From Candidatus Binatia bacterium (GTDB taxonomy: Bacteria > Desulfobacterota > Binatia > DP-6), in the NCBI GenBank assembly GCA_036009625.1, contig DASYLJ010000101.1, positions 1,483 through 65,482 of the forward strand: a stretch of 64,000 bases of DNA. The letters are read 5' to 3'. The notes below the pieces were generated by a model, which was given only the letters and a program-made list of their open reading frames with translations, had not been told where the DNA came from and did not search any database. Shown here piece by piece: positions 11,847 to 58,999 of the stretch. Numbering within the stretch: position 1 is the stretch's first letter; each line of letters begins with the position of its first letter. A program made the translations under genes and the position numbers.

Positions 11847-11961
11847 GCGGCCGCCTCGCAAATCCGGATCGTGATCCTCGACGTCGACGTCACCGTTTGA
11901 CCGTCGATTTTCCTCACGTTCTCGTCACGTTAGCTCGTACAGAAAGGAAGGAGCAGTGGGC

Positions 11962-12255
11962 ATGAAGATCAGACCACTTCAAGATCGCGTCATCGTGAAG
12001 CGACTCGAAGAGGAAGCGCAGAAGTCCAAGGGGGGCATCATCATCCCCGACACCGCCAAGGAGAAGCCCCAGCAGGGCAAGATCATCGCGGTCGGCAAGG
12101 GCAAGGCCAACGACGACGGCAAGATCCAGCCGCTCGACGTCAAGGTTGGCGACGTCATCCTGTTCGGCAAGTATTCCGGTTCCGAAATCAAGCTCGACGG
12201 CGACGAGCACCTGATCATGCGCGAGGAAGACATCCTCGGCGTGGTCGAGAGCTGA
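11962..12255 (+). CDS. groES: co-chaperonin GroES
   Basis: [18 protein letters not shown]...[22 protein letters not shown]... SD GGAAGGAG lies upstream of ATG 11962. Confidence 0.95.
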
Positions 12256-13917
<1,662 letters not shown>

Positions 13918-13949
13918 TGCCGACCCGTGCTCACTGAGACTGCAGTATC

Positions 13950-13986
13950 CGGGGCCCCCGGGTGGACCTTCCGCCCGGGGGCCCCG
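13950..13986 (+). terminator. stem-loop after groEL (13-bp perfect GC stem, 11-nt loop)
   Basis: CGGGGCCCCCGGG (13950-13962) pairs perfectly with CCCGGGGGCCCCG (13974-13986). It is followed by the moderately T-rich TCGTTTCGGGGTTTCTT. Confidence 0.55.
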
Positions 13987-14061
13987 TCGTTTCGGGGTTT
14001 CTTGACAGCCCCACCCACCTCCAGTAGCGTCCGCCCTTTCCGGCGTTTGGTGTAATTGGGC

Positions 14062-15396
14062 ATGTTTGAATCCCTGGGTGAGAAGTTCGAAGGCTTGTGG
14101 CGGAAGCTGCAGGGCCAGGGAAAGATCAGCGAACGGAACATCGAGGAGGCGCTGCGCGAGGTTCGGCTGGCGCTCCTCGAGGCCGACGTCAACGTCGGCG
14201 TGGTCCGCGACTTCGTAGAGGCGGTCAAGAAGGACGCCCTCGGTCAGGACGTCCTCCGCAGCCTCACGCCGGAACAGCAGTTCATCAAGCTGGTCCACCG
14301 CGAGCTGCAGCGGCTCCTCGGCGGACAGCCCACCACGCTGGATCTCGGCGGTCCGTCGCCCGTTGTCATCATGATGGTGGGCTTGAACGGCGCCGGTAAG
14401 ACGACGTCCACCGCCAAGCTGGCGCGCTGGCTGCGCGACGAGCGCGGACGCCGCCCGTATCTCGTACCCGCCGACGTCTACCGCCCCGCCGCCATCGAGC
14501 AGCTCGGCCTGCTCGCGGCGCAGCTCGGGGTCCCCGTGCATCCGTCCACGGCGGGCGGCGACCCGGTGAACATCGCGCGCGGAGCCGTCGCCGCCGCGCG
14601 GGCGCAGGGCGCCGACGTCGTCCTCATCGACACCGCCGGCCGCCAGACGGTCGACGAGGAGCTCATGGGCGAGCTCGAGCGCATCCGCGCCGCCGTCGAC
14701 CCGCGTCAGATCCTGCTCGTCGCCGACGCCATGACCGGCCAGGACGCCGTCGCCACGGCACAGGGCTTCGGCAAGCGTCTGACGCTGTCGGGCATCCTGC
14801 TCACCAAGATCGAGGGTGACGCGCGCGGCGGTGCCGCGTTGTCGCTGCGCTCGGTCACCGGCAAGCCCATCATCTTCGCGGGCACCGGCGAGAAGCTCGA
14901 CGCGCTCGAGGCGTTCCATCCCGACCGCATCGCATCGCGCATCCTCGGCATGGGCGACATGCTGTCGCTCATCGAGCGCGCCGAGAAGGCCTACGACAAA
15001 GACCAGGCCGAGGCGCTCGGCAAGAAGCTCAAGAAGAACGAGTTCGACCTCGAGGACTTCCGCGATCAGCTGCGCGCCGTGAAGAAGATGGGATCGGTCG
15101 CCGAGCTGCTCGGCATGATCCCCGGCGTCAAGAAGATGCTGAAGGGCGCCGATCTCGGTGGCGCCGACCACGAGCTCAAGCGGGTCGAGGCCATCATCGA
15201 CTCGATGACACGCGAAGAGCGCCGCAACGTCCACATCCTGAACGCCAACCGGCGCAAGCGCATCGCCGCCGGCAGCGGGACGTCCGTGTCCGAGGTCAAC
15301 CGTCTCCTGAAGCAGTTCACCCAAACCAAGAAGGTCCTGAAGAAGCTCGGCTCGGGACCCATGATGCAGGGCATGCCGCCCGGCATGCTTCGCTGA
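14062..15396 (+). CDS. ffh: signal recognition particle protein Ffh
   Basis: MFESLGEKFEGLWRKL aligns with the E. coli Ffh N-terminus. GLNGAGKTTS, DTAGR and TKIEGDARGG are SRP GTPase boxes, followed by a Met-rich M domain. The track ORF opens at TTG 14056. Confidence 0.95.
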   Translation: MFESLGEKFEGLWRKLQGQGKISERNIEEALREVRLALLEADVNVGVVRDFVEAVKKDALGQDVLRSLTPEQQFIKLVHRELQRLLGGQPTTLDLGGPSPVVIMMVGLNGAGKTTSTAKLARWLRDERGRRPYLVPADVYRPAAIEQLGLLAAQLGVPVHPSTAGGDPVNIARGAVAAARAQGADVVLIDTAGRQTVDEELMGELERIRAAVDPRQILLVADAMTGQDAVATAQGFGKRLTLSGILLTKIEGDARGGAALSLRSVTGKPIIFAGTGEKLDALEAFHPDRIASRILGMGDMLSLIERAEKAYDKDQAEALGKKLKKNEFDLEDFRDQLRAVKKMGSVAELLGMIPGVKKMLKGADLGGADHELKRVEAIIDSMTREERRNVHILNANRRKRIAAGSGTSVSEVNRLLKQFTQTKKVLKKLGSGPMMQGMPPGMLR

Positions 15397-15426
15397 CACC
15401 CGAGACCCGAAGAGGAATTCGATCCC

Positions 15427-15687
15427 ATGGTCAAGATTCGCCTCGCCCGCCACGGCAGCAAGAAGCACCCGGTGTACCGCATCGTCGTCGCCAGCTCGGC
15501 ATCGCCGCGCGACGGTCGGTTCATCGAGCAGGTGGGCCTCTACGATCCGACGCGCAATCCCGCCCTCGTCAAACTCGACACGGCGAAGATCAACGCCTGG
15601 CGCGCCAAGGGCGCGCAGCCTACCCAGACCGTGCAGGAGCTGATCGAGAAGCAGGCCGGCGTGACGCCCGCGGCGCCTCCCGCATAG
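15427..15687 (+). CDS. rpsP: 30S ribosomal protein S16
   Basis: [22 protein letters not shown]... Confidence 0.95.
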
Positions 15688-15730
15688 CCGCACCGGCCCT
15701 TCTGGAAGCTCCGGAGGAGCTGCGACTCCA

Positions 15731-15967
15731 ATGAAGGAACTCGTTCTGTTTCTGGCGAAGCACTTGGTGAACCACCCAGACGCCGTCGAGGTGAAGGAGA
15801 CGCAGGGGGATGCGACCTCGATCCTCGAGCTTCGGGTCGCCAAGGAAGACATCGGACGGGTCATCGGCAAGCAGGGCCGTACCGCCAAATCGATCCGGAC
15901 CATTCTCAATGCCGCCGCGTCCCGTACCAACCGCAAAGTCGTCCTCGAGATCATCGAAGAGCCCTGA
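15731..15967 (+). CDS. KH-domain RNA-binding protein (UPF0109/YlqC-like)
   Basis: ...LELRVAKEDIGRVIGKQGRTAKSIRTIL... contains the KH GxxG motif. It sits in the conserved position between rpsP and rimM. Confidence 0.85.
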   Translation: MKELVLFLAKHLVNHPDAVEVKETQGDATSILELRVAKEDIGRVIGKQGRTAKSIRTILNAAASRTNRKVVLEIIEEP

Positions 15968-25996: not shown

Positions 25997-26412
25997 ACGG
26001 ACGCATCGTGGCGGGGCTCGTCGGGCTCGGTATCGTCGCCTTCGGGTTGATGGGGCTCTTCTATCCCGTGCAGGTGATGAGCATCGCCGGCTTCTCGCCC
26101 GCGTCGGAGTCGATGCGCGCGCAGGCGTACGGCGAGACCCGCGCCATCTACGGCGGGACGTTCATCGCGCTCGGCATCTACACCATCTTCGCCGCCAGCA
26201 ATCCCATCGTGCACCGCCGGACGCTCACCATGATGGCGATGGTGTTCTTCGGCATCCTCGCCGGCCGCATGATCGGCATCTCGATCGACGGCAATCCGGG
26301 TCTGTTCGGATGGATCGGTGCCGGGCTCGAAGTGTCCACCGGCTCGCTGCTGCTCGCGTCCACGTATCTCCACCGCGTCCCCGAGGCCCTGCCGCCACCC
26401 CAGGTCGACTGA
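25993..26412 (+). CDS. small 4-TM membrane protein (DUF4345-like, tentative)
   Basis: MNGRIVAGLVGLGIVAFGLMGLF... has four hydrophobic spans. ATGA overlap with the miaB stop. It ends 11 nt before mrpA. Confidence 0.6.
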   Translation: MNGRIVAGLVGLGIVAFGLMGLFYPVQVMSIAGFSPASESMRAQAYGETRAIYGGTFIALGIYTIFAASNPIVHRRTLTMMAMVFFGILAGRMIGISIDGNPGLFGWIGAGLEVSTGSLLLASTYLHRVPEALPPPQVD

Positions 26413-26422
26413 GCGTCCCGCA

Positions 26423-28710
<2,288 letters not shown>

Positions 28711-28714
<4 letters not shown>

Positions 28715-29121
28715 AGTCACCGCTCCTCTCGACCGTCGCGCGCGTGATCCTGCCGCCGATGCTGCTGGTCGCGGCCTGGCTGCTGCTGCGCGGACACAAC
28801 CAGCCCGGTGGCGGGTTCATCGCCGGCCTGATGACGGCGGCCGCGTTCGTCCTGCAGTACGTCGCCACCGACCGGGGTCGCGCCGGCGACGCGCTGCCGT
28901 TCCGGCCGGCGCTGCTGATCCCGATCGGCCTCGCCCTCGCGACGACCACCGGTCTCGGTGCGCTGCTCGCGGGTCAGCCCTTCCTGACCAGCGCCATCGC
29001 ACACGCACACGTGCCGCTGCTCGGCGAGCTGCACCTCTCGACGGCCGTACTGTTCGACCTCGGGGTCTATCTGGTGGTCACCGGTGTCACGCTCACCATC
29101 CTGCTCGCGATCGAGGAGTGA
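28711..29121 (+). CDS. mrpB: Na+/H+ antiporter subunit B
   Basis: GTGA overlap with mrpA. ...LLLRGHNQPGGGFIAGLMTAAAFVL... is the MnhB motif. Confidence 0.85.
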
Positions 29122-29456
29122 TCGTGGAGCTCCTCGTCGCCATAGCCATCGGGAGCCTCGTCGCCGCGGGGGTGTTCCTGATCCTGCGGCCGACGGGCTT
29201 TCCCGTCGTGCTCGGGCTCGCGCTGGTGAGCCACGCCGTGAATCTCCTGCTCGTGTCGATGGGACGCGTGCGCCTCGGCAGCCCGCCGCTGGTCGCGGAC
29301 GGCACGACGGCGACTGCGGACCCGTTGGCACAGGCACTCGTGCTCACCGCCATCGTCATCTCCTTCGGCATGACGGCGTTCCTCCTGGTGCTGGCGTATC
29401 GCGGCTATCAGCGGGCGGGCACCGAGAGCGTCGATCTGGAGATCGAGCATGGCTGA
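29118..29456 (+). CDS. mrpC: Na+/H+ antiporter subunit C (NuoK-like)
   Basis: GTGA overlap. 112 aa with 3 TM segments, ...GLALVSHAVNLLLV...QALVLTAIVISFGMTAFLL... Confidence 0.85.
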   Translation: MIVELLVAIAIGSLVAAGVFLILRPTGFPVVLGLALVSHAVNLLLVSMGRVRLGSPPLVADGTTATADPLAQALVLTAIVISFGMTAFLLVLAYRGYQRAGTESVDLEIEHG

Positions 29457-30942
29457 CCTCCTCGTCGCGCCGGTGCTCTGGCCGCTGGTGACGGCCATCG
29501 TCCTGCTCTCGCTCGGCGGACGGCCCGGCGTGCAGCGCCTCGTGAGTCTGGTCTCGCAGGCATGCCTGCTCGCCGTCGCGGTGGCGCTGGCGGTGGCGGT
29601 GAAGGACGGCACCGTACTGGTGCATCGGCTCGGCGGCTGGCCGGCGCCGTTCGGCATCGTGCTCGTGGCGGATCGGCTGACGGCCGTGATGCTGCTCCTG
29701 ACCGCCGTCACCGGCCTCGCGGTGCTCCTGTACGAAGCGGCGGCACCCGATCGCGAGCTCGAGCGGCTGCCGTTCTTCCCGCTCTTCCACTTCCTGCTGA
29801 TGGGGCTCGACGGCGCGTTCGTCACCGGCGACCTGTTCAATCTGTTCGTCTTCTTCGAGGTGCTGCTGATCGCGTCGTACGCCCTGGCCACGCTCGGCGC
29901 GAGCGCGCGCCAGCTGCGCGCCGGCCTGCAGTTCGTGGTCCTGAACCTGCTCAGCTCCGCGCTCTTCCTGTTCGGCGTCGGTACGCTCTACGGCCTCACC
30001 GGCACACTCAACCTGGCCGACCTCGCGGGCAAGGTGGAGGCACTCGGCAGTGCCGACGCCGGGCTGCTGCGCGTCGCCATGATGAGCCTGCTCGTGGTGT
30101 TCGCCGCCAAGGCCGCGTTGATCCCGCTCGCCTTCTGGCTGCCCGACACCTATCCGGCGCCGTCGCCGGTGGTGTCGGCCATGTTCGGCGGCATCGCCAC
30201 CAAGGTCGGCGTCTACGCGTTGCTGCGCGTGTTCACGACGGTCTTCGACTCCGTGCGCGGCCCCGGCGCCGAGGTGCTGCTCGTGCTCGGCATCGTGTCG
30301 ATGCTGGTGGGCGTGCTGGGCGCCGTCGCACAGACGGAGCTGCGCCGACTGCTGTCGTTCCACATCGTCAGCCAGATCGGCTACCTGGTGTTCGGCATCG
30401 GTCTCTTCACCATCGCCGGGGTGGGGGCCGCGATTTTCTACATGGTGCACTACACCATCGTGAAATGCGCCCTGTTCCTCCTGAGCGGCAGCGCGGAGCG
30501 TCTCGGCGGTGCGCGGGATCTAAAGCAGCTCGGCGGGCTCGCGCACCAATCGCCCGCTCTGGCCGCGCTCTTCTTCGTGGGAGCGATCTCGCTCGCCGGC
30601 CTCCCACCGACGAGCGGCTTCATGAGCAAAGCATTCCTGGCGAGCGCCGCGATCGCCGACGGACAGTGGGTGGGCGTCGTCGTGATCTTCGCCGCCGGTC
30701 TGCTGACGCTCTTCTCGATGACGAAGATCTGGACCATGGCGTTCTGGGGCGAGCCGCCGCACGCGGCCCCGCAACACGCGCCCGTCGGCATGCTGTGGGC
30801 GGCGGCACTCCTGGTGTCGTTCTCGATGACGTTGGCGCTGGCGGCCGATCCGCTCTTCCGCTTCACGCAGGCGACCGCCACGCAGCTGCTCGATCGCACC
30901 GGCTACGTCGCCGCCGTGCTCGCACCGGGAGCCCGGCCGTGA
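29449..30942 (+). CDS. mrpD: Na+/H+ antiporter subunit D (NuoN/ND2-like)
   Basis: ...AKAALIPLAFWLPDTYPAPSPVVSAMFGGIATKVGVYALLR...; 497 aa polytopic. Confidence 0.9.
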   Translation: MADLLVAPVLWPLVTAIVLLSLGGRPGVQRLVSLVSQACLLAVAVALAVAVKDGTVLVHRLGGWPAPFGIVLVADRLTAVMLLLTAVTGLAVLLYEAAAPDRELERLPFFPLFHFLLMGLDGAFVTGDLFNLFVFFEVLLIASYALATLGASARQLRAGLQFVVLNLLSSALFLFGVGTLYGLTGTLNLADLAGKVEALGSADAGLLRVAMMSLLVVFAAKAALIPLAFWLPDTYPAPSPVVSAMFGGIATKVGVYALLRVFTTVFDSVRGPGAEVLLVLGIVSMLVGVLGAVAQTELRRLLSFHIVSQIGYLVFGIGLFTIAGVGAAIFYMVHYTIVKCALFLLSGSAERLGGARDLKQLGGLAHQSPALAALFFVGAISLAGLPPTSGFMSKAFLASAAIADGQWVGVVVIFAAGLLTLFSMTKIWTMAFWGEPPHAAPQHAPVGMLWAAALLVSFSMTLALAADPLFRFTQATATQLLDRTGYVAAVLAPGARP

Positions 30943-31433
30943 GGGCGTTCCGCCATCCCGTCTATGCGGCGGTGCTGGCCGTCGCGTGGCTGGTGCTGCA
31001 GGGTCGCGTCACTGCCGGGGACTTCGTCGTCGGCTACGCCGTCGCCACCATCGTGGTGTGGCTCTGTCGCGACTTCTGGAGCGAGCGCGTCACCGTCCGC
31101 CAGCCGCTCGTCATGCTCCGCCTGGCGGCGACGTTCCTACGCGAGCTGCTGCGCGCCAACCTCCAGGTGGCGTGGATCCTCCTGCAGCCGCGTCTTCGCA
31201 TCCAGCCCGCGTTCATCGTGATCCCGCTCGAGCTACGCGACGACCTCGCCATCACCGCGCTCGCCAGCATGATCACCCTGACGCCGGGCACGCTGACCGT
31301 AGACGTCGCCCCCGATCGTTCGGCGCTCTGGGTGCACTGCCTGTCAGCCACCGACGCGGATGCGGTGCGGGCGCAGATCAAGCAGCAGTTCGAGCAGCCG
31401 CTCGTGGAGGGCATCGAATGCTCGCCGCTGTGA
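30939..31433 (+). CDS. mrpE: Na+/H+ antiporter subunit E
   Basis: GTGA overlap. Tail of ORF 29562..31433: ...LRELLRANLQVAWILLQPRLRIQPAFIVIPLELRDDLAITALASMITLTPGTL... is MnhE-like. Confidence 0.8.
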   Translation: MRAFRHPVYAAVLAVAWLVLQGRVTAGDFVVGYAVATIVVWLCRDFWSERVTVRQPLVMLRLAATFLRELLRANLQVAWILLQPRLRIQPAFIVIPLELRDDLAITALASMITLTPGTLTVDVAPDRSALWVHCLSATDADAVRAQIKQQFEQPLVEGIECSPL

Positions 31434-31687
31434 CGTCGGTGGCCATGGCCGGGCTCGGCATCTCGCTGGCGCTCTGTCTCTGGCGACTCGTCGTCGGGCC
31501 CGACGTCGTCGACCGGTTGCTCGCGCTCGACACCATCACCGTCAACGTGGTCGCACTCCTGGTGGTGCTGTCGATCCACCTGCGCACCGACGTCTACCTG
31601 GAAGCCGTCATCGTGCTGGCGCTGCTGGGCTTCGTCGGAACGGTGGCGGTCGCCAAGGCCCTCATGCGGGGACGAATCATTGACTGA
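31418..31687 (+). CDS. mrpF: Na+/H+ antiporter subunit F
   Basis: MLAAVTSVAMAGLGISLALCLWRLVVGPDVVDRLLALDTITVNVVALL... is MnhF-like, 89 aa. Confidence 0.8.
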   Translation: MLAAVTSVAMAGLGISLALCLWRLVVGPDVVDRLLALDTITVNVVALLVVLSIHLRTDVYLEAVIVLALLGFVGTVAVAKALMRGRIID

Positions 31688-32051
31688 CGTCCTGGCGAGC
31701 CTCCTCCTCCTCACCGGCCTTGCCTTCACGCTGGTCGGCTCGCTCGGTCTGGTGCGCCTGCCGGACGTCTACACGCGCATCCACGCGCCCACGAAGGCGA
31801 CCACCCTCGGCCTCACCTGCCTCCTCGCCGCCGCCGCCCTCACCCTCCCCGGCAATCACCTGGCCATCGCCATGAAGGCCCTCCTCGTCGTCATCTTCCT
31901 CTTCCTGACCGCCCCCATAGCCGCCCAAACCCTGGCCCACACTGCCCGCGCCACCGGCATACGGCCAACCCCAATGACCCACATCGACGAACTACCCCCA
32001 CCCACCATCGAACGAGCCGGGCTCGACCCGGCACACCCCGGACCCGACTAG
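31680..32051 (+). CDS. mrpG: Na+/H+ antiporter subunit G
   Basis: TTG start overlapping the mrpF end. ...GSLGLVRLPDVYTRIHAPTKATTLG... is the MnhG motif. Confidence 0.85.
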   Translation: MTDVLASLLLLTGLAFTLVGSLGLVRLPDVYTRIHAPTKATTLGLTCLLAAAALTLPGNHLAIAMKALLVVIFLFLTAPIAAQTLAHTARATGIRPTPMTHIDELPPPTIERAGLDPAHPGPD

Positions 32052-51298: not shown

Positions 51299-53632
51299 GT
51301 GCGTCCCCGTGATCTGGAAACGCTCGAGCTGCCCCGCGTGCTCGAGGCCATCGCCGGCTTCGCGCGATCCGAGTCGGGTCGCGACGCCGTGCATGCGTTG
51401 CGACCGACGACCGATCGCGCCGTCGCCGACGACCGGCTCGACGTCGCCGCCGAGCTGCTGGCGCTGACCGCCGAAGCCGGCGCGATGCCCACCGCCGATG
51501 TACCGCGGCTCGGGCCCGCGTTGACGCAGGCCGCTCCGGTGGGTGCTGCCCTCGAGGGACGCTGGCTGATGGAGGTGCGCGATCTCCTCGTCGTCGCCCG
51601 GCACGTGCGCACCTGGCTGCGACGCGACCCCGATCGCCTGCCTCGGCTCGCGACCCTCGCCGACGGCCTGCCCGAGGTGCCCGAGCTGGAGGAGGCGCTG
51701 CTCTCGACGCTCGACGACAGCGGCCAGGTCCGCGAGGACGCGAGCCCGGCCCTCGCCGCCGCCCGTCGCGCCACCCGCGAGCTGCGCACCCGTCTCGAAG
51801 CCGACCTGATGACCGTCGTCCGCGACCCGCAGCACGAAGGCATCATGGGCGACCAGTACGTCACGGTGCGCAACGGTCGCTACGTGGTCCCGATCCGCAC
51901 TGCGGCGGCGTGGACGTTCAACGGCGTCGTGCAGGACCGCTCGGCGTCCGACGAGACCGTCTTCGTCGAGCCGCTGTTCGCGATCGAGCAGAACAACCGG
52001 CTGCTGCTGGCGTCGAAAACGGAAGAGGCGGAGGAGCGGCGCGTGCGTGCCGAGCTCACTGCCGCCGTCCGCACCCATACCGAGCCGCTGCGCGCGCTCG
52101 AGGAGGCACTCGCCGAAGCCGACGCGCTCGCCGCCGTCGCTGCCTTCGCGCATCGGCATGCCTGCACGCGCCCAGTGCTCGGCACCGACGACGTCGTGCT
52201 GCCGGCGGCGCGCCATCCGCTGCTGGTACTGAGCGGACGCGAGGTGACGCCCGTCGACATCCGGCTGCGCGCCGGACAGCGCGGGCTCGCCATCACGGGG
52301 CCCAACGCCGGCGGCAAGACGGTGACGCTCAAGACCTTGGGGCTCATGGCCTTGATGGCCCAGGCCGGCATCTTCATCCCTGCCGGCGAGGGCAGCCGCC
52401 TGCCCTGCTTCACCGCCATCCTGGCCGACATCGGCGACGAGCAGTCGATCGAGCGCGACCTCTCGACGTTCACCGGCCACGCCGAGAACCTCGGTCGCAT
52501 CGCCAATGCCGTCACCCCCGGCAGCCTCGTCCTGCTCGACGAGCCGGGCGCCGGCACCGATCCGGTGGAGGGTGCGGCGCTCGCCACCGGCGTGCTCGCC
52601 GATCTCCTGGCGCGCGGACCGATCATCGTCTTCACGACGCACTTTCCGCAGGTGAAGACGTTCTCCCTCGCCGAGCCCGAGCTCGAGGTGGCGGCGTTCG
52701 ACGTCGATCCCGTGAGCGGCGCGCCGCGCTATCGGCTCGACTACCACACCATCGGCCAGAGCTTCGCGCTGCCGATCGCGCGCCGTCACGGCATTCCGGC
52801 GCGCGCGCTCGAGACCGCGGAGCGACTGCTCGCCGGCGAGAGCCAGGACCTGTCACGCGCGATCGCACGGCTCGAGACCAGCCGTCGCGAGCTCGAGACC
52901 GCCCGCGAGGCCGCCGAGACCGAGGCTGCCCGCCTCGCCGCGGAGCGGGCCACCGTCGAAACGCTGGCCGACGACCTGCGCCAGCGCCGCCGCCAGCGCT
53001 GGGCCGACGATCTCGAGGCGTCGCGTCGTTTCGTCCGCGACCTCGAGACCCAGGGTCGCGCCGTGCTCGACGAGCTACGCCGCACCCCCGACCCGACCGC
53101 GCTGCGCCGATTCGTCACCGAGGCGAAGGAGGGCATCGCCGCACACACGGCGGATGCCGCCCCCGACGCGCCCCCTCCCGGCAGACCACCCCGCGTCGGC
53201 GACACGGTCGAAGTCACGGGCCGCGGCATTCGCGGCGAGCTCCTGGAGCTGACCGGCGACCGCGCCCGTCTGCAACGCGGCGGCTTGAAGTTCGAAGTCC
53301 CGTCCAACCAGCTCCGCGTGGTGACCGGCGCCCCCACGACGAAAGAGCGTACGACCGGCCATCAGGTGACCTCGGCAGAGTCCGACAGTTCGGCCATCGA
53401 GCTCAACGTCATCGGCCAACGCGCCCGCGACGCCGTTGCCGCCCTCGGCCCCTTCCTCGACCGCGCCATCCGCACCGGCGCCAGCGAAGTACGAGTCGTG
53501 CACGGCCTCGGCAGCGGCGCCCTACGCCGCGCCGTCCAAGACTTCCTCGCCTCGAGCCCCTACTGCGCCAAATACCGCGACGCCGACCCCCAGAACGGCG
53601 GCGCCGCCGTCACCGTCGCCGAGCTGAACTGA
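51299..53632 (+). CDS. mutS2: endonuclease MutS2 (MutS domain V ATPase plus Smr)
   Basis: ...ITGPNAGGKTVTLKTLGL... Walker A, ...LVLLDEPGAGTDP..., a long coiled coil, and the C-terminal Smr domain (...ELNVIGQRARDAV...VRVVHGLGSGALRRAVQDFL...). GTG start. Confidence 0.9.
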   Translation: MRPRDLETLELPRVLEAIAGFARSESGRDAVHALRPTTDRAVADDRLDVAAELLALTAEAGAMPTADVPRLGPALTQAAPVGAALEGRWLMEVRDLLVVARHVRTWLRRDPDRLPRLATLADGLPEVPELEEALLSTLDDSGQVREDASPALAAARRATRELRTRLEADLMTVVRDPQHEGIMGDQYVTVRNGRYVVPIRTAAAWTFNGVVQDRSASDETVFVEPLFAIEQNNRLLLASKTEEAEERRVRAELTAAVRTHTEPLRALEEALAEADALAAVAAFAHRHACTRPVLGTDDVVLPAARHPLLVLSGREVTPVDIRLRAGQRGLAITGPNAGGKTVTLKTLGLMALMAQAGIFIPAGEGSRLPCFTAILADIGDEQSIERDLSTFTGHAENLGRIANAVTPGSLVLLDEPGAGTDPVEGAALATGVLADLLARGPIIVFTTHFPQVKTFSLAEPELEVAAFDVDPVSGAPRYRLDYHTIGQSFALPIARRHGIPARALETAERLLAGESQDLSRAIARLETSRRELETAREAAETEAARLAAERATVETLADDLRQRRRQRWADDLEASRRFVRDLETQGRAVLDELRRTPDPTALRRFVTEAKEGIAAHTADAAPDAPPPGRPPRVGDTVEVTGRGIRGELLELTGDRARLQRGGLKFEVPSNQLRVVTGAPTTKERTTGHQVTSAESDSSAIELNVIGQRARDAVAALGPFLDRAIRTGASEVRVVHGLGSGALRRAVQDFLASSPYCAKYRDADPQNGGAAVTVAELN

Positions 53633-53800: not shown

Positions 53801-54973
53801 CTACAGGACGAGCAGCTTGGTGACGTGCTCGAACACCCCCGCCGAGCTGTCGATCTCCACGGCGCACGCCCCGATCGCCCCCGGCGGCACCGCGACGGTG
53901 ATCTCCCCCGCGAGCTGCGTGAGGATCGGCGTAGTGATCCCGCAGATGCGCACCGCCGTCCCCGCGTTCAGGTCGCACTGACTCGTCAGCGTGACGATGT
54001 CCCCGACGTGTGCCGACGTCGGCGCGAAGGCGTCGAAGCAGGTGCACGCCATGCCGGCGAGGCCGCAGCACTCGCCCAGGTTGTTCAGGTCGGCGAGCAC
54101 GACGTCACCGATGAACTGCCCCGTGAGCACGTTGCCGTGCCCGAGACGGATCAACGCCTCCGGTGCGCACACCCTCGCCGCGACGCTGCTCTTGCGGCCG
54201 AACGAGATCGTACCGGTGCCCTTCTGCTGGATGACGAATCCATCGCACCCCATGCCGACGGCGCTGCCGTTGTTGACGCGGAAGAAGCCGGGGTCGGGGA
54301 TCGTGAGCGTCACGCCCGTACCCAGGACGAGCACGTTGCGACCGCCGTGGAACGAGCACACCGCGTAGCTGCCGGGCGCGAACGAGATGCGGGCCGCGTT
54401 CTGTGCGGTGATGGCGCCGTAGGTGCCGGGCGCCAGGTCGCACTGGCCGTTGCCGAGCTGGGTATCGAACGCACTGCAGTCGAGGCCCGGCAGCGCCAGC
54501 ACCGGCTTCGTCGCGTCGCAGGCGGGGAACGGATTCGGGAATCCGCACGCCTCCTCGACCTTGGCGATGTCGGGCACGCAGTCCGCGCTGCACGTGTCCG
54601 GAATGATCGGCGTCGTGAACGGCTCGGGCGGCGGCTGCGCGATGGTGACGTTGTCGAGCGGGCCACCACCGTTGCGGAAGACCTGGAACACCTGCGCGCC
54701 GGGCTTGGTGAAGAACTGCTTGTCCGCCACCGATTGCGTGCCGGGACCGAACGACACCTCGTCGAGCCGCATGCTGCCGCACACGGCGCCAGCGATCGGC
54801 GACGCGCAGTTCACACCGACGTTGCATGCGCCGCTCAACGACAGGTTCTTCAGCGCCGCCTTCCGCAGCGCCAGGACGAAGTACGAGCTCAGGTCGCGAT
54901 CGAGCGGCTGCGCCGAAGCGGGCAGCGCCGCGAGCACGAGGGCGAGAACGACGAATCGAGTGACGTATCGCAT
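53801..54973 (-). CDS. secreted Cys-rich protein with C-terminal IPT/TIG-like domain, paralog 1 (most divergent)
   Basis: Signal peptide MRYVTRFVVLALVLAALPASA|QPL, 19 Cys alignable with the other three paralogs, and motifs ACNVGVNC, CGFPNPFPAC, GNGQCDLAPGTYG, VCAPE, GECC. SD GGAGGG lies 7 nt before the ATG and overlaps the paralog-2 stop. Confidence 0.8.
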   Translation of the reverse strand: MRYVTRFVVLALVLAALPASAQPLDRDLSSYFVLALRKAALKNLSLSGACNVGVNCASPIAGAVCGSMRLDEVSFGPGTQSVADKQFFTKPGAQVFQVFRNGGGPLDNVTIAQPPPEPFTTPIIPDTCSADCVPDIAKVEEACGFPNPFPACDATKPVLALPGLDCSAFDTQLGNGQCDLAPGTYGAITAQNAARISFAPGSYAVCSFHGGRNVLVLGTGVTLTIPDPGFFRVNNGSAVGMGCDGFVIQQKGTGTISFGRKSSVAARVCAPEALIRLGHGNVLTGQFIGDVVLADLNNLGECCGLAGMACTCFDAFAPTSAHVGDIVTLTSQCDLNAGTAVRICGITTPILTQLAGEITVAVPPGAIGACAVEIDSSAGVFEHVTKLLVL

Positions 54974-54986
54974 CTTCCCGCCCTCC

Positions 54987-56225
54987 TTAGTTGACCGTGA
55001 GCGTGGCCAGCGCCGAGTAGGTGCCGGCCGTGCTGTTGGCTTCGATGACGCAGGCGCCGGCAGCGCCCGCGGGTACGGTCACGTGGATCTCGCCGGGCGT
55101 CTGGACGGTGATCGGCGCCGCGATGCCGCAGATGGTGATGCTGGTGACCAGCGTCAGGTCGCACGCACCGATGAGCGTGATGGTGTCGCCGACGACCGCG
55201 GTCGCGGGTGAGAACGAGTCGAAGCAGGTGCAGAGGCCGCCGCTCGGCGCGCAGCAATGGCCGCGGTTGCTCGAGTCGGCCTGCACGATGTCGCCGATGA
55301 ACTGGCCCGTCAGGTCGTTGTTGTGGCCGACGAACATGCGGCGCTCGGGAGCGCAGAAGCGGCCGAGGATGGTGGCGTTGCGGCCGAACGAGAAGTCGCC
55401 GGGGCCCTTCACGTGCACCCGCACGTCGTTGCAGCCTTGGCCGAAGGTCGAGTCGTTGTTGATGCTGAAGTCGCCGCTGACGTCCCACACCGCCGGCGCG
55501 TTCGCCGTCGTCGTCGTGCTGCGACCGAACGACACGCCGCAGAAGACGTAGTTGCCGCCGACGAGCGTCAGCATGGCGTTGTTCTGCACCTTCAGGTCGC
55601 CGTAGACGCCCGGCGACAGGTCGCAGCGGCTGTTGCCGGGGAGCGCGTCCGGGACACCGATGCAGTCGGAGTTGTCCGGCACCAGGACCGGCACCGCTGG
55701 CGTGCAGGCCGGGAAGGGCACCGGGAAGCCGCACCCGGCCTCGAGGTCGCCGAAGTCGGTGACGCAGCCAGCGTCGCAGCTCGGCGTCCCGTCCATGTCG
55801 AGGTCGGCGAGGATGGGATTCACCAATGGGTCGCTGCCGTCCGGCTTGGAGCCGGGCAGGCGGATGGTGACGTTGCCGGAGCCGTTGAGCTCGTTCGTGA
55901 ACAGCTGCCAGATGCTGGCGCCCGCCTTGTTGAAGCGGGTGACGTCGGCGGCCAGCTGCGAGCCGTCGGCGAAGAAGGAGTCCTCGTTGGTGGCCACGCC
56001 GCAGGCGCTGTTGGCCGTCGGCCGCTTGCAGTTGACGCCGACGTTGCACGCCCCGAGCAGCGTGAAGTTCTTCAGGCCCACGCTCTGCTGCGCGAAGATG
56101 AAGTAGGCGTCGAGATTGGTGGCGAGCGGCGGATTCGCCGCCCGTGCCGGTGGGCCGGACAGAACCGCAACGCAGGCCGCGATCAGACCGAACCGGCCCG
56201 ACCGGAGCAGCATCGAGATGTGCAT
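54987..56225 (-). CDS. secreted Cys-rich protein with C-terminal IPT/TIG-like domain, paralog 2
   Basis: From ATG 56225 (MHISMLLRSGRFGLIAACVAVLSGPPARA|ANPPL). Motifs ACNVGVNC, LADLDMDGTPSC, CGFPVPFPAC, GNSRCDLSPGVYG, FCAPER, VGHNNDLTGQFIGD, RGHCC. SD GGAGGAAGG. Confidence 0.8.
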   Translation of the reverse strand: MHISMLLRSGRFGLIAACVAVLSGPPARAANPPLATNLDAYFIFAQQSVGLKNFTLLGACNVGVNCKRPTANSACGVATNEDSFFADGSQLAADVTRFNKAGASIWQLFTNELNGSGNVTIRLPGSKPDGSDPLVNPILADLDMDGTPSCDAGCVTDFGDLEAGCGFPVPFPACTPAVPVLVPDNSDCIGVPDALPGNSRCDLSPGVYGDLKVQNNAMLTLVGGNYVFCGVSFGRSTTTTANAPAVWDVSGDFSINNDSTFGQGCNDVRVHVKGPGDFSFGRNATILGRFCAPERRMFVGHNNDLTGQFIGDIVQADSSNRGHCCAPSGGLCTCFDSFSPATAVVGDTITLIGACDLTLVTSITICGIAAPITVQTPGEIHVTVPAGAAGACVIEANSTAGTYSALATLTVN

Positions 56226-56359
56226 GTGGCGCCTTCCTCCCTGGTGGGGGACGCCACGTCGGCGCCCCGCGCCGGAGAGCAAGAGCGATGCCGGCCAACT
56301 TCGTCCGCCGGATGGGGAGATGTGGCCGCGTAACCGGGCAGAATTGTGCGGCGCTGGGC

Positions 56360-56402
56360 AAAAATGAGCCCCGGGGAGCGTGGTTGCTCGCTCCCCGGGG
56401 CT
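56360..56402 (-). terminator. rho-independent terminator after paralog 3
   Basis: A 14-bp perfect stem (56367-56380 / 56389-56402) with an 8-nt loop. On the minus strand it is followed by TTTTT (plus-strand AAAAA at 56360-56364). It lies 13 nt downstream of the paralog-3 stop. Confidence 0.65.
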
Positions 56403-56414
56403 GCGCTCGGCGGG

Positions 56415-57635
56415 TCAGCTCACGGTGAGCTTGGTCAGAAGCGTGAACGTTCCGGCCGCGCTGTCCACCTCGACGGGGCACATGCCCGTCGCGCCGACGG
56501 GCACGGTGACCTCGACCTTGTCGATCGACTGGAACGTGATCGGCGCCACGATGCCGCAGATGCGGACGCCGGTGACGTTGGTCAACGAGCAGCCACCGGT
56601 GAGCGTGATGGTCGCTCCGACGGCCGCGGTCGTCGGTGAGAATTCGTCGACGCAGGCACACGAGCCGCCGCAGCAGTGGCCACGATCACTCGAGTCGGCC
56701 GTGATGACGTCGCCCACGAAGCGGCCCGTCAGGTCGTTGTTGTGCCCGAGGCTCATGTTGCGCTCGGGAGCGCAGAAGAAGCCGGTGACGGACATGTTGC
56801 GCCCGAAGCTGACGGAGCCGACTCCGAACGCATTCACCGTGAAGTCACCGCACTCCTCGCCGAATGCGGAGCCGTTGTTGACGGCGAAATCACCGGTCAC
56901 GTTGAGCGTCGTGGCGTTCTTTACGAGCGAGTTGACGTTGCGACCCATCTGCACGTTGCAGAACACGTAGGTGCCGCCGTCGAAGCTGATCGTGGCGCCG
57001 TTCTGCACCGCGAGGTTGCCGTAGGTGCCCGGAGGGAGATCGCACTGTGCATTGCCGGCCTGCGCATCGGGCGCTCCGACGCAGTCGCCGCCGGCCGTCA
57101 CCAGGATCGGCTTGGTGACATCGCAGAGGGGAGCGGGATTGGGCAGGCCGCAGAAGACGCCGACGTCACCGAAGTCCGGCGTGCAGGCGGGGCCGCAGCT
57201 CGGATTCCCGTCACCGTCGAGGTCGCCCAGAATGGGCAGCGTCAGCGGGTTGGTGCCGTTCGGTCCCGGGCCCGGCTGCCGGATCGTCACGTTCGCCGGG
57301 TTGGGCAGCAGGTTCGAGAAGACCTGGAACATGCTGGCGCCGCCCTTGTTGAACTTGGTGACGTCCGCTGCCAGCTGTGAGCCATCGGCGAAGAACGAAT
57401 CCTCCAGCGACGACGAACCGCAGCTGTTGTTCGGGGCAGGGTTTGGACAGTTCACCCCGACGTTGCACGCACTGAGCAGGTCCATGTTCTTCAGGTTCGC
57501 GCTGCGCATCGCGAAGATGAAGTACGACGCGAGATCGGTGCGGAGCGGCTGGGCCCCCGCGGTGGACGCAACGAGCAACAGCGCGGCCAGCGCCGCGCCG
57601 GGGACGAGGCCGCTGGGCCTCCGCATGGTGGACAT
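56415..57635 (-). CDS. secreted Cys-rich protein with C-terminal IPT/TIG-like domain, paralog 3
   Basis: ATG 57635 (MSTMRRPSGLVPGAALAALLLVASTAGA|QPL) is preceded by GGAGGG at 5 nt; the track ORF opens at GTG 57641. It shares the motifs of paralog 4, to which it is closest (roughly two-thirds identity by eye). Confidence 0.8.
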   Translation of the reverse strand: MSTMRRPSGLVPGAALAALLLVASTAGAQPLRTDLASYFIFAMRSANLKNMDLLSACNVGVNCPNPAPNNSCGSSSLEDSFFADGSQLAADVTKFNKGGASMFQVFSNLLPNPANVTIRQPGPGPNGTNPLTLPILGDLDGDGNPSCGPACTPDFGDVGVFCGLPNPAPLCDVTKPILVTAGGDCVGAPDAQAGNAQCDLPPGTYGNLAVQNGATISFDGGTYVFCNVQMGRNVNSLVKNATTLNVTGDFAVNNGSAFGEECGDFTVNAFGVGSVSFGRNMSVTGFFCAPERNMSLGHNNDLTGRFVGDVITADSSDRGHCCGGSCACVDEFSPTTAAVGATITLTGGCSLTNVTGVRICGIVAPITFQSIDKVEVTVPVGATGMCPVEVDSAAGTFTLLTKLTVS

Positions 57636-57796
57636 GAGCACCCTCCTTCAGTTGTTGTGGAGAGTCGCGCCCGGGCGGCAGATCATCGTTGGCCCGGACA
57701 CGACTCCCAGGCATCTGAGACCAGGAGTACCATGCGGTCCGCCGCTGCGAATGCCCCCTAAAACAAGTTTTTTTGAGGCACAGAAAAGCGCCGGGG

Positions 57797-58999
57797 TCAG
57801 CCCACTGTGAGGGGTACCTCGTGGATGAACGTGCCCGCGCTGCTGTCCACCTCGACCGGGCAGCTGCCGGCCGCGCCGAGGGGAACGGTCACCTGGACCT
57901 CGTCGTCGGACTGCGCGGTGATCAGCGCAGGGATACCGCAGATCCGCACCTCGGTGACGTTCGTCAGCGAGCAGCCGCCGGTGAGGCTCACCGTATCGCC
58001 CACCCCGGCCGTGGTCGGCGAGAAGGCGTCGATGCAGGCGCACAGACCACCGCAGCAGTGGCCCCGATTCTTCGAGTCGGCGGTGATGACGTCGGCGACG
58101 AACCGCCCCGTGAGGTCGTTGTTGTGGCCGAGGCTCAGCGATCGCTCCGGCGCGCAGAAGGCGCCGGTAACCGAGAGGTTACGACCGAAACTGACGACGC
58201 CCTGGCCGAACGCGTTGACGGTGAAGTCGCCGCACTGCTCGCCGAACGTCGAGCCGTTGTTGACGTTGACGTCGCCGCGGACGTCGAGACGGGTCGCGGC
58301 GCCGACGGCGGCGTGTGCGTTCTTGCCCAGCTGAATCTCGCAAAAGGCGTACGTACCGCCGTCGAACGAGATGCTGGCGCCGTTCTTCACCGTGAGCGCG
58401 CCGTAGGTCCCCGGCTGCAGGTCGCAGCGCCCGTTGCCCTGGAAGGTGTCCGGCGCCCCGCCGCAATCGCCACCGGATGCCACCGTGACGGATCGTCCTG
58501 GGTCACAGGCCGGGAAGGGGTTCGGCAGATGGCAGAAGGCCGCGGCGTCCCCGAAGTCGGGCGTGCAGCCTGCGCCGCAGCTCGACTGTCCATCGCCGTC
58601 GAGGTCGCCGAGCAGGGGCAGCGCGAGCGGCGTGGGGCCGGGTTCGCGCAGGGTGACGTTGTCCGGGTTCGGAAGCTGGTTCGCGAACACCTGGAAGGCG
58701 CTCGCCCCCGGCTTGGTGAAGCGCGTGACGTCGGCCGCCACCTGCGAGCCATCGGCGAGGATGGCGTTCTCGAACGACGCATTGCCGCAGCTGCTGTTGC
58801 CGTTCGGGCGCGCGCAGTTGACGCCGACGTTGCAGGAGCTCAGCACGTCGAGGTCCTTCACGTTGGCGCTGCGCATCGCGAACAGGAAGTACGACCCCGC
58901 GTTGGTGCGCAGCGGCTGCGCATCCACTTCGGTTGCCAGCGCAAGGGCGGTCAGCACCGCCCCCCGCACGAGGCTCCCCGACCTTCGCATGCTCGACAT
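57797..58999 (-). CDS. secreted Cys-rich protein with C-terminal IPT/TIG-like domain, paralog 4
   Basis: MSSMRRSGSLVRGAVLTALALATEVDA|QPL. Motifs SCNVGVNC, LGDLDGDGQSSC, CTPDFGD, CHLPNPFPAC, GNGRCDLQPGTYG, FCAPER, LGHNNDLTGRFVAD, RGHCC. The C-terminal FSPTTAGVGDTVSLTGG...VTVPLGAAGSCPVEV is IPT/TIG-like. SD GGAGGG lies 7 nt upstream. Confidence 0.8.
   Translation of the reverse strand: MSSMRRSGSLVRGAVLTALALATEVDAQPLRTNAGSYFLFAMRSANVKDLDVLSSCNVGVNCARPNGNSSCGNASFENAILADGSQVAADVTRFTKPGASAFQVFANQLPNPDNVTLREPGPTPLALPLLGDLDGDGQSSCGAGCTPDFGDAAAFCHLPNPFPACDPGRSVTVASGGDCGGAPDTFQGNGRCDLQPGTYGALTVKNGASISFDGGTYAFCEIQLGKNAHAAVGAATRLDVRGDVNVNNGSTFGEQCGDFTVNAFGQGVVSFGRNLSVTGAFCAPERSLSLGHNNDLTGRFVADVITADSKNRGHCCGGLCACIDAFSPTTAGVGDTVSLTGGCSLTNVTEVRICGIPALITAQSDDEVQVTVPLGAAGSCPVEVDSSAGTFIHEVPLTVG

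Follow-up and report, generated by a model that had tools for sequence, protein, structure and literature searches.

A tandem array of cysteine-rich exported proteins of two types, with a predicted ice-binding-like beta-solenoid fold, in Candidatus Binatia

The window analyzed here, a 64,000-nucleotide stretch from a metagenome-assembled genome (MAG) of Candidatus Binatia, contains at positions 53801-58999 four head-to-tail minus-strand genes, P1 to P4, that encode cysteine-rich proteins of 390-412 aa. We regard the following as established: the genes are real and under purifying selection, their products share one cysteine pattern and one fold class, and the family to which they belong divides into two types, A and B, that are coupled in arrays and occur as fusions. 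Each protein is predicted to be exported by the Sec system and to comprise a disulfide-cross-linked ~295-aa beta-solenoid, a short Cys-x-Cys linker and a C-terminal IPT/TIG domain. We favor, with a little better than even confidence, the explanation that the products are binding proteins of the envelope or surface, without enzymatic activity, which work in A/B pairs.

An earlier reading made from the sequence alone had recognized four minus-strand paralogs of about this size, and ORF (open reading frame) calling recovered all four, which align over their full lengths. The features are as follows (domain limits in residues of the respective protein).

53801-54973, minus strand: P1, type B paralog, 390 aa, leader 1-21
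54065-54910, minus strand: P1 solenoid domain, 22-303, without a DxDxDG loop
53804-54037, minus strand: P1 TIG-like domain, 313-390
54987-56225, minus strand: P2, type A paralog, 412 aa counted from ATG, leader 1-29
55251-56138, minus strand: P2 solenoid domain, 30-325, DLDMDG loop at 55788-55805
54990-55223, minus strand: P2 TIG-like domain, 335-412
56367-56402, minus strand: intrinsic-terminator-like hairpin, 13 nt past the P3 stop, 14-bp stem with 12 G-C pairs, then CATTTTTG
56415-57635, minus strand: P3, type A paralog, 406 aa counted from ATG, leader 1-28
56670-57551, minus strand: P3 solenoid domain, 29-322, DxDxDG loop (DLDGDG) at residues 138-143 (57207-57224), then the CxC linker
56418-56651, minus strand: P3 TIG-like domain, 329-406
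57797-58999, minus strand: P4, type A paralog, 400 aa, leader 1-27
58052-58918, minus strand: P4 solenoid domain, 28-316, DLDGDG at 58589-58606, then the CxC linker
57800-58033, minus strand: P4 TIG-like domain, 323-400

Types A and B, their order and their fusions

A neighbor-joining tree covering every copy at 17 loci of Binatia type separates the family into two clades, A and B; P4, P3 and P2 belong to type A and P1 to type B. A 7-residue indel tracks the tree perfectly, type A having the DxDxDG-containing segment and type B lacking it, and when the indel columns were left out, 96 of 100 bootstraps still recovered the A|B bipartition. P1 clusters with the last genes of other arrays and with domain 2 of fusion proteins. 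Judged from the tree and the indel, A and B are ancient partner types. The sequence-only reading had attributed the array to serial duplication with graded divergence. This stands for P2-P4, which are of one type and show graded identities (P3-P4 69%, P2-P3 55%, P2-P4 52%), but not for P1 (46-51% identical to the others in pairwise comparison, 43-51% in the multiple alignment), which belongs to a separate ancient type present across Binatia and is not just the earliest of the local duplicates. The same division is apparent in the sequence motifs. P2-P4 keep the motif blocks that had been described as shared by all four proteins and, as also described, carry a DxDxDG-type motif (DLDMDG in P2, DLDGDG in P3 and P4); P1 departs at several blocks (CVPDIAK, VCAPE, LGHGNVLTG) and has no DxDxDG.

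Gene order follows type. The arrays read A-A-A-B in the window and at two other loci (L001, L007), A-A-B at L009, A-B at L011, L013 and L014, and A-B-B at L012 and L015. The intergenic gap from A to B is 1-28 nt in nine of nine loci, whereas A-A and B-B gaps measure 160-260 nt. At least nine database proteins of ~606-629 aa are fusions, and those examined have a type A domain 1 and a type B domain 2. The fused genes at L003 and L017 share flanks with the unfused A-B-B arrays L012 and L015, as found in an all-against-all comparison of flanking ORFs that was swamped by shadow ORFs of high-GC DNA. Conserved order, coupling-like spacing and Rosetta-stone fusions are a classic sign of joint function, and on the strength of the order, the 1-28 nt gaps and the fusions we consider it likely that A and B function together. 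An AlphaFold model of a natural A-B fusion (P0013; mean predicted local distance difference test score, pLDDT, 88.6; predicted template modeling score, pTM, 0.79) suggests that the two domains adopt a defined mutual arrangement. That A and B form a physical heterodimer we put at even chances.

Two side observations concern the arrays. A second conserved array, A-B-B, adjoins a sulfatase/TPR gene, and in some genomes a single A-B fusion gene takes its place. At L002 (7088-12625) a P3-like copy has moved by ~57 kb in one genome; it follows an 896-aa protein with faint Disintegrin matches and lies beside an Omp85-family gene and PMT-type glycosyltransferases.

The four genes could instead be simple serial duplicates, each acting alone, with A-B adjacency and fusions arising as by-products of tandem duplication. 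Graded identities would be expected on this account, as would the variation among genomes in arrangement and in copy number (4, 4, 3, 2 or 1), the relocation of a P3 orthologue in one of them, and the occurrence of a B-B array and of singletons. The ancient A/B split with its discrete indel, the difference in spacing between A-to-B and like-type neighbors, the constant A-then-B order in the fusions examined and the pTM of the fusion model all argue in the other direction, and we judge independent action to be unlikely, if far from negligible.

Cysteine pattern, fold and family assignment

Each protein has 19 Cys residues at aligned positions, and P2 has a 20th within its leader. Fourteen lie in the stretch up to the 'CC', two in the CxC linker and three in the C-terminal module, in agreement with the 16 N-terminal and three C-terminal cysteines originally counted by eye. 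The pattern is nearly invariant over ~60 homologues and is not found in P0067, a distant homologue from DUF7305 that is devoid of Cys in the corresponding region. Cysteine pairings were deduced from joint loss among homologues. C8-C9 (P3 residues ~183/196), jointly lost in three proteins, and C3-C5 (P3 residues ~70/149), jointly lost in at least two, are well supported pairs; C7-C10, C11-C14, C2-C6 and C18-C19 are tentative candidate pairs. In several proteins C13, the leading Cys of 'CC', or C16 is missing without a partner. The count is odd, with 19 Cys per protein and 15 per solenoid unit, and A-B fusions have 30. The fusions in which cysteines were examined (P0013, P0016, P0026, P0068) have an unusual 'CCC' at the extreme C-terminus. 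The His preceding CC is not conserved.

All four proteins begin with a leader that carries 2-3 positively charged residues, a hydrophobic core and, just before Q/A, an A-x-A sequence, as judged by inspection and hydropathy, so that the Sec-type signal peptide proposed for each paralog is upheld, with n-region, h-region and A-x-A site all present. The 20th Cys of P2 is in a lipobox-like 'L-I-A-A-C' within the leader (56172-56225), and P2-like homologues also have 20 Cys, the extra residue apparently being conserved. A lipoprotein assignment for P2 on the basis of 'LIAAC' is unlikely on inspection: only six hydrophobic residues precede the Cys, and the hydrophobic stretch runs on to an A-R-A site.

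The AlphaFold model of P3 (pLDDT 91.8, pTM 0.80) is nearly all beta, its sole mature helix being the eight residues 155-162. In a Foldseek search with this model, DUF3494 ice-binding proteins were the only N-domain matches above 0.3 probability among the matches listed (probabilities 0.84-0.99). The fusion model of P0013 gave the two-domain ice-binding protein 5uyt as its best PDB match (E 1e-6, probability 1.0), followed by LeIBP, ColAFP, FfIBP (TM up to 0.58, root-mean-square deviation 6.0 Å) and TisAFP; pectate-lyase-like, tailspike and autotransporter helices had probabilities below 0.15. The N-terminal domain is thus very probably a right-handed beta-solenoid of the DUF7305/DUF3494 ice-binding-like class, and the disulfide-stapled solenoid loosely resembling DUF3494 that had been proposed from the letters alone agrees with the model. 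In the canonical DUF3494 topology a long helix lies beside the solenoid and the last coil adjoins the first (PMC11645318). DSSP found no such long helix in the P3 model or in the fusion model, which has only short helices at 155-161 and 456-463. The place where the long helix would be is taken by a ~70-residue, mostly coil insert that separates the two conserved halves of the domain and holds six of its 14 Cys. The DxDxDG loop of type A falls within this Cys-rich insert and, from its sequence, may bind calcium. A tentative co-loss of the first Cys with the first Cys of CC would fit the DUF3494 topology, in which first and last coils are neighbors (PMC11645318).

At the sequence level the N-terminal domain was compared with Pfam at the gathering cut-offs of the database (27 bits for DUF7305, PF23981; 20.9 bits for TIG, PF01833). 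The C-terminal half of the domain scored against DUF7305 at 15.1 bits in P2, 19.5-19.8 in P3 and 17.9 in P4, with no match in P1. Among 64 family members, 36 match DUF7305 (best E 1.4e-7), four match pAdhesive_15, described in Pfam as a 'putative ice-binding-like adhesive domain', and one matches Ice_binding (E 6.8e-4). Precomputed PF23981 matches are on record for P0013, P0020, P0032, P0038, P0051 and P0055, and the relatives P0157 (36.6 bits) and P0120 (47.7 bits) pass the DUF7305 cut-off. A family profile search retrieved 3828 representative proteins at E<=1e-3 among 1.84 billion. The distant relatives are mostly Cys-poor proteins of ~300-350 aa that match in two stretches, the central insert being skipped, and share with the window proteins the leader and a mature N-terminal motif, D-[IL]-x-x-Y-[VIF]-[LF]-F-A. 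Some end in a PEP-CTERM anchor or carry cohesin, CHB_HEX_C or SpaA-type domains, which points to the cell surface or matrix. The N-terminal ~295 aa are probably a divergent Cys-rich branch of DUF7305, a membership that is shown at the level of the fold together with weak profile evidence. The region had been called unassignable; the sub-threshold matches of P2-P4, the 36 matching family members and the distant relatives that pass the cut-off indicate that it can be placed at the level of the superfamily. The assignment leads to a family with no known function, and no confident profile match to a family of known function was obtained. A literature search for DUF7305 returned no papers.

DUF7305 proteins, which include ~300-aa proteins with PEP-CTERM anchors, are homologous to the window family in sequence (P3 alone as query retrieves P0067 at E 4e-8) and share with it the signal peptide, the N-terminal motif and an 'SD.N' at the C-terminal end of the solenoid. 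They differ in having few or no Cys, in lacking the central ~50-70-aa Cys-rich insert and in ending with PEP-CTERM or other surface domains in place of the Cys linker and TIG domain, and A/B pairing is not known for them. The DUF3494 ice-binding proteins TisAFP, LeIBP, FfIBP, ColAFP and IBPv (5uyt) belong to the same fold class, and both groups include two-domain tandem forms; the window family has no significant PF11999 match and no long helix, contains 14-15 Cys per domain and comes from habitats that are not evidently icy. For the DUF7305, DUF3494 and IPT/TIG families there is no description of such a Cys scaffold, of an insert without the helix, or of A/B pairs and their fusions.

These structural neighbors raise the question of whether the proteins bind ice, the flat solenoid face protecting cells during freeze-thaw or anchoring them to ice. 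The only structural neighbors of the solenoid among the matches listed are experimentally verified ice-binding proteins. The pairing of DUF3494 with Ig-like domains is a known layout of ice adhesins, as in SfIBP_1 (PDB 6bg8), and that entry is among the fusion-model matches. Against such a role, Pfam gave no Ice_binding/DUF3494 (PF11999) match in the four window proteins and the single family match noted above, the canonical helix is missing, and genome record titles, taken alone, point to soil and general environmental surveys and not to icy habitats. When the family alignment was used for a sequence-profile search of the PDB, no ice-binding protein was among the matches. Ice binding by some of the non-canonical relatives of DUF3494 (PMC11645318) speaks for the idea; an hhalign comparison of the family profile with the ice-active non-canonical DUF3494 protein of Aquiluna (PMC11645318) found nothing (0.4% probability), a result that carries no information, since a lone sequence served as target. 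Overall, an ice-binding or antifreeze role appears very improbable.

The IPT/TIG-like C-terminus that had been recognized by its sequence pattern was confirmed. P4 passes the Pfam TIG cut-off (24.0 bits), P2 and P3 fall just under it (20.3 and 20.4 bits), P1 has no match, and 37 of the 64 family members match. The family profile matched domain D of CGTase in the PDB (E 3e-4, last ~80 aa), and the C-terminus of the P3 model superimposes on TIG/E-set domains of CGTase (domain D), SGBPs, plexin and Sec5 (IPT) at probability 1.0 and TM up to 0.67 of the target. Compared with the IPT/TIG domains of CGTase (domain D), Bacteroides SGBPs and plexins, to which the last ~80 aa correspond by profile, Pfam and fold, the window version differs in three conserved Cys and in the CC-x(2-6)-C-x-C linker to the solenoid; the P1 copy is too divergent for Pfam. 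The C-terminal domain is exchanged in some homologues: P0086, P0090 and P0104 keep the full N-domain Cys set and have Cys-rich repeats (myxo_disulf_rpt, DUF4215, Dicty_CTDC) in place of TIG, and in P0087 (1111 aa) the family domain sits at the C-terminus.

TIG/E-set domains are found together with glycoside hydrolases, CGTase among them, and right-handed beta-helices are common among polysaccharide lyases and glycosidases. The solenoid could thus be a carbohydrate-active enzyme with TIG as its accessory domain, and the conserved polar blocks GHNNDLTG and CAPER might be cited in support. Foldseek probabilities for PL6 lyases, tailspikes and glucanases were nevertheless at most 0.08, and no Pfam or NCBIfam enzyme family was matched. 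The near-invariant polar residues are mostly N, D, S and Q, as expected for solenoid turns, and the motifs are not retained in distant relatives. Enzymatic activity of this kind is very improbable.

Gene organization, selection and distribution

The array in the window begins with two type A genes, P4 and P3, followed by the terminator and then by the A-B bicistron P2-P1, in which P2 is the first gene. The hairpin (56402-56367 in the direction of transcription) with its T run fits at least two transcription units, as the sequence-only reading had supposed. The gap between P2 and P1 is 13 nt, the value given earlier, and the P1 GGAGGG (54981-54986) abuts the P2 stop codon. Strong GGAGGG Shine-Dalgarno sites had been claimed for all four genes. 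P1, P3 and P4 have GGAGGG 5-7 nt upstream of ATG; P2 has GGGAGGAAGG instead, ~9 nt upstream of its start, so that all four starts have a site of the GGAGG type before them. An alternative GTG start of P3 at 57641 would yield 408 aa, and the GenBank annotation gives 406 aa; P3 is 100% identical to P0001, which is GenBank VGR62_12840, a 'hypothetical protein' of the Candidatus Binatia MAG. A promoter scan found no sigma-70-like sites, and scans of the window for tRNA genes and Rfam families gave no matches. On one side the array is flanked by MutS2 (51299-53632, plus strand) and on the other by Hsp33, DsbD and RibBA (minus strand).

The arrangement dsbD-hsp33-four paralogs-mutS2 recurs in an independent genome, GCA_026129405.1, whose flanking proteins are ~70% identical, and in L007, a Binatia MAG that is more closely related. 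At the hsp33-dsbD/mutS2 site L009 keeps three copies, and it has a P3-like copy elsewhere on the same contig. Besides the window, the hsp33-dsbD/mutS2 context is common only to L001, L007 and L009. The ratio of nonsynonymous to synonymous substitution rates (dN/dS) between orthologues is 0.06-0.17 against L007 (0.08 for P4, 0.10 for P2) and 0.24-0.31 against L009, and the flanking MutS2, Hsp33 and DsbD genes give 0.04-0.27 in the same comparisons. Values between paralogs (0.27-0.72) cannot be interpreted, since at 70% GC dS is either saturated or constrained. As measured by the orthologue ratios, purifying selection acts on the genes to a degree similar to that seen in their neighbors, and they are maintained, not pseudogenes or shadow ORFs; decay into pseudogenes, which the sequence-only reading had kept in mind, is at odds with orthologue ratios of 0.06-0.31.

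Sequence searches suggest that the family is largely confined to Binatia-like MAGs, in which it seems to have ~8 copies per genome over several loci. Copies are spread over 3-4 loci per genome, examples being P0034 (VGR62_12000), L010 and L012 (CAYOIZ01), and L008, L015 and L020 (CAYSOF01). A search for contigs that encode P0034, a further copy of the same MAG, found none on record.

The position of the array directly downstream of dsbD-hsp33 in four genomes, together with the odd number of cysteines, could indicate redox-linked periplasmic proteins that serve as substrates or partners of DsbD/Hsp33, for example as thiol buffers or as metal or oxidant sinks. This neighborhood is limited, however, to close relatives, other arrays and singletons lying in unrelated contexts; cysteine co-loss fits structural disulfide pairs; and the lack of conservation of the His preceding CC also counts against a redox role. 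We rate this reading as very improbable.

Two further observations were made elsewhere in the window. The AT skew is -0.20 to -0.27 over 26000-32000, where a plus-strand Mrp/Mnh-type cation/proton antiporter operon lies (Proton_antipo_M, MbhD/E, MNHE), an effect of membrane-protein codon composition. A minus-strand ORF of 1346 aa (11914-15954), rich in L, A, G, D and R and without a Pfam match, covers the part of the window lowest in GC (65%, AT skew +0.2); it looks like an antisense shadow of the plus-strand ORFs 12271-13917 and 14056-15396 and not like a real gene.

A/B pairs as candidate surface binding proteins

In the explanation that we favor, Sec-exported binding proteins working as A/B pairs, the solenoids would bind or adhere, without catalysis, to some extended surface or polymer belonging to the envelope, the matrix or the environment. 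A and B would act jointly, probably as a heteromer, and the presence of several alternative A subunits would diversify the role. The binding or adhesion role itself is put forward tentatively, as somewhat short of an even chance. In a diderm, a Sec leader is proof of export as far as the periplasm and no farther; a location beyond the periplasm may be envisaged from the domains of the distant relatives.

A number of observations weigh against this explanation. No anchor or outer-membrane export signal is present in the window proteins, which could therefore be periplasmic; Pfam and NCBIfam scans of the four found no PEP-CTERM/exosortase signal. For the N-terminal domain all four lie below every Pfam cut-off, P1 matching nothing, and the domain was left uncovered both by the PDB sequence-profile search with the family alignment, where CGTase TIG was the only match, and by NCBIfam, which returned only noise for the four proteins (CoaZ_rpt_PGGG, 12.8-14.7 bits against a cut-off of 30, confined to the TIG-like part), so that none of its choice-of-anchor families was matched. 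Single-domain Foldseek scores are weak (E ~0.02, root-mean-square deviation ~10 Å, TM 0.36-0.48). Fusion proteins are without TIG domains. L016 is a B-B array and lone A and lone B genes also exist, which indicates that A/B pairing is not obligatory. Beyond close relatives, the comparison of flanks of family loci revealed no conserved functional neighbors.

A more specific version of the A/B reading would make the array a combinatorial module, in which one B subunit (P1) pairs with alternative A subunits (P2, P3 or P4) as solenoid heterodimers, perhaps locked by an inter-subunit disulfide of the odd Cys, the whole being a disulfide-braced, helix-less redesign of DUF3494 that binds a ligand other than ice. 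We offer it as a speculative and on balance doubtful model.

Taken together, the results describe a well-characterized family of hypothetical proteins and provide a solid starting point for work on a large domain of unknown function; they do not define a new kind of system. Solenoids of the DUF3494/DUF7305 type are present in thousands of bacteria that do not encounter ice. The family offers a handle on solenoid function through its 19-Cys scaffold in place of the helix, its A/B organization and its ~8 copies per genome, and it has expanded in an uncultured, globally distributed phylum. The A/B organization, with operon coupling and natural fusions, predicts a protein-protein interaction. Should an A/B heteromer be found and its ligand identified, a first function would be gained for a large domain family, and the disulfide-stabilized scaffold may be of engineering interest.

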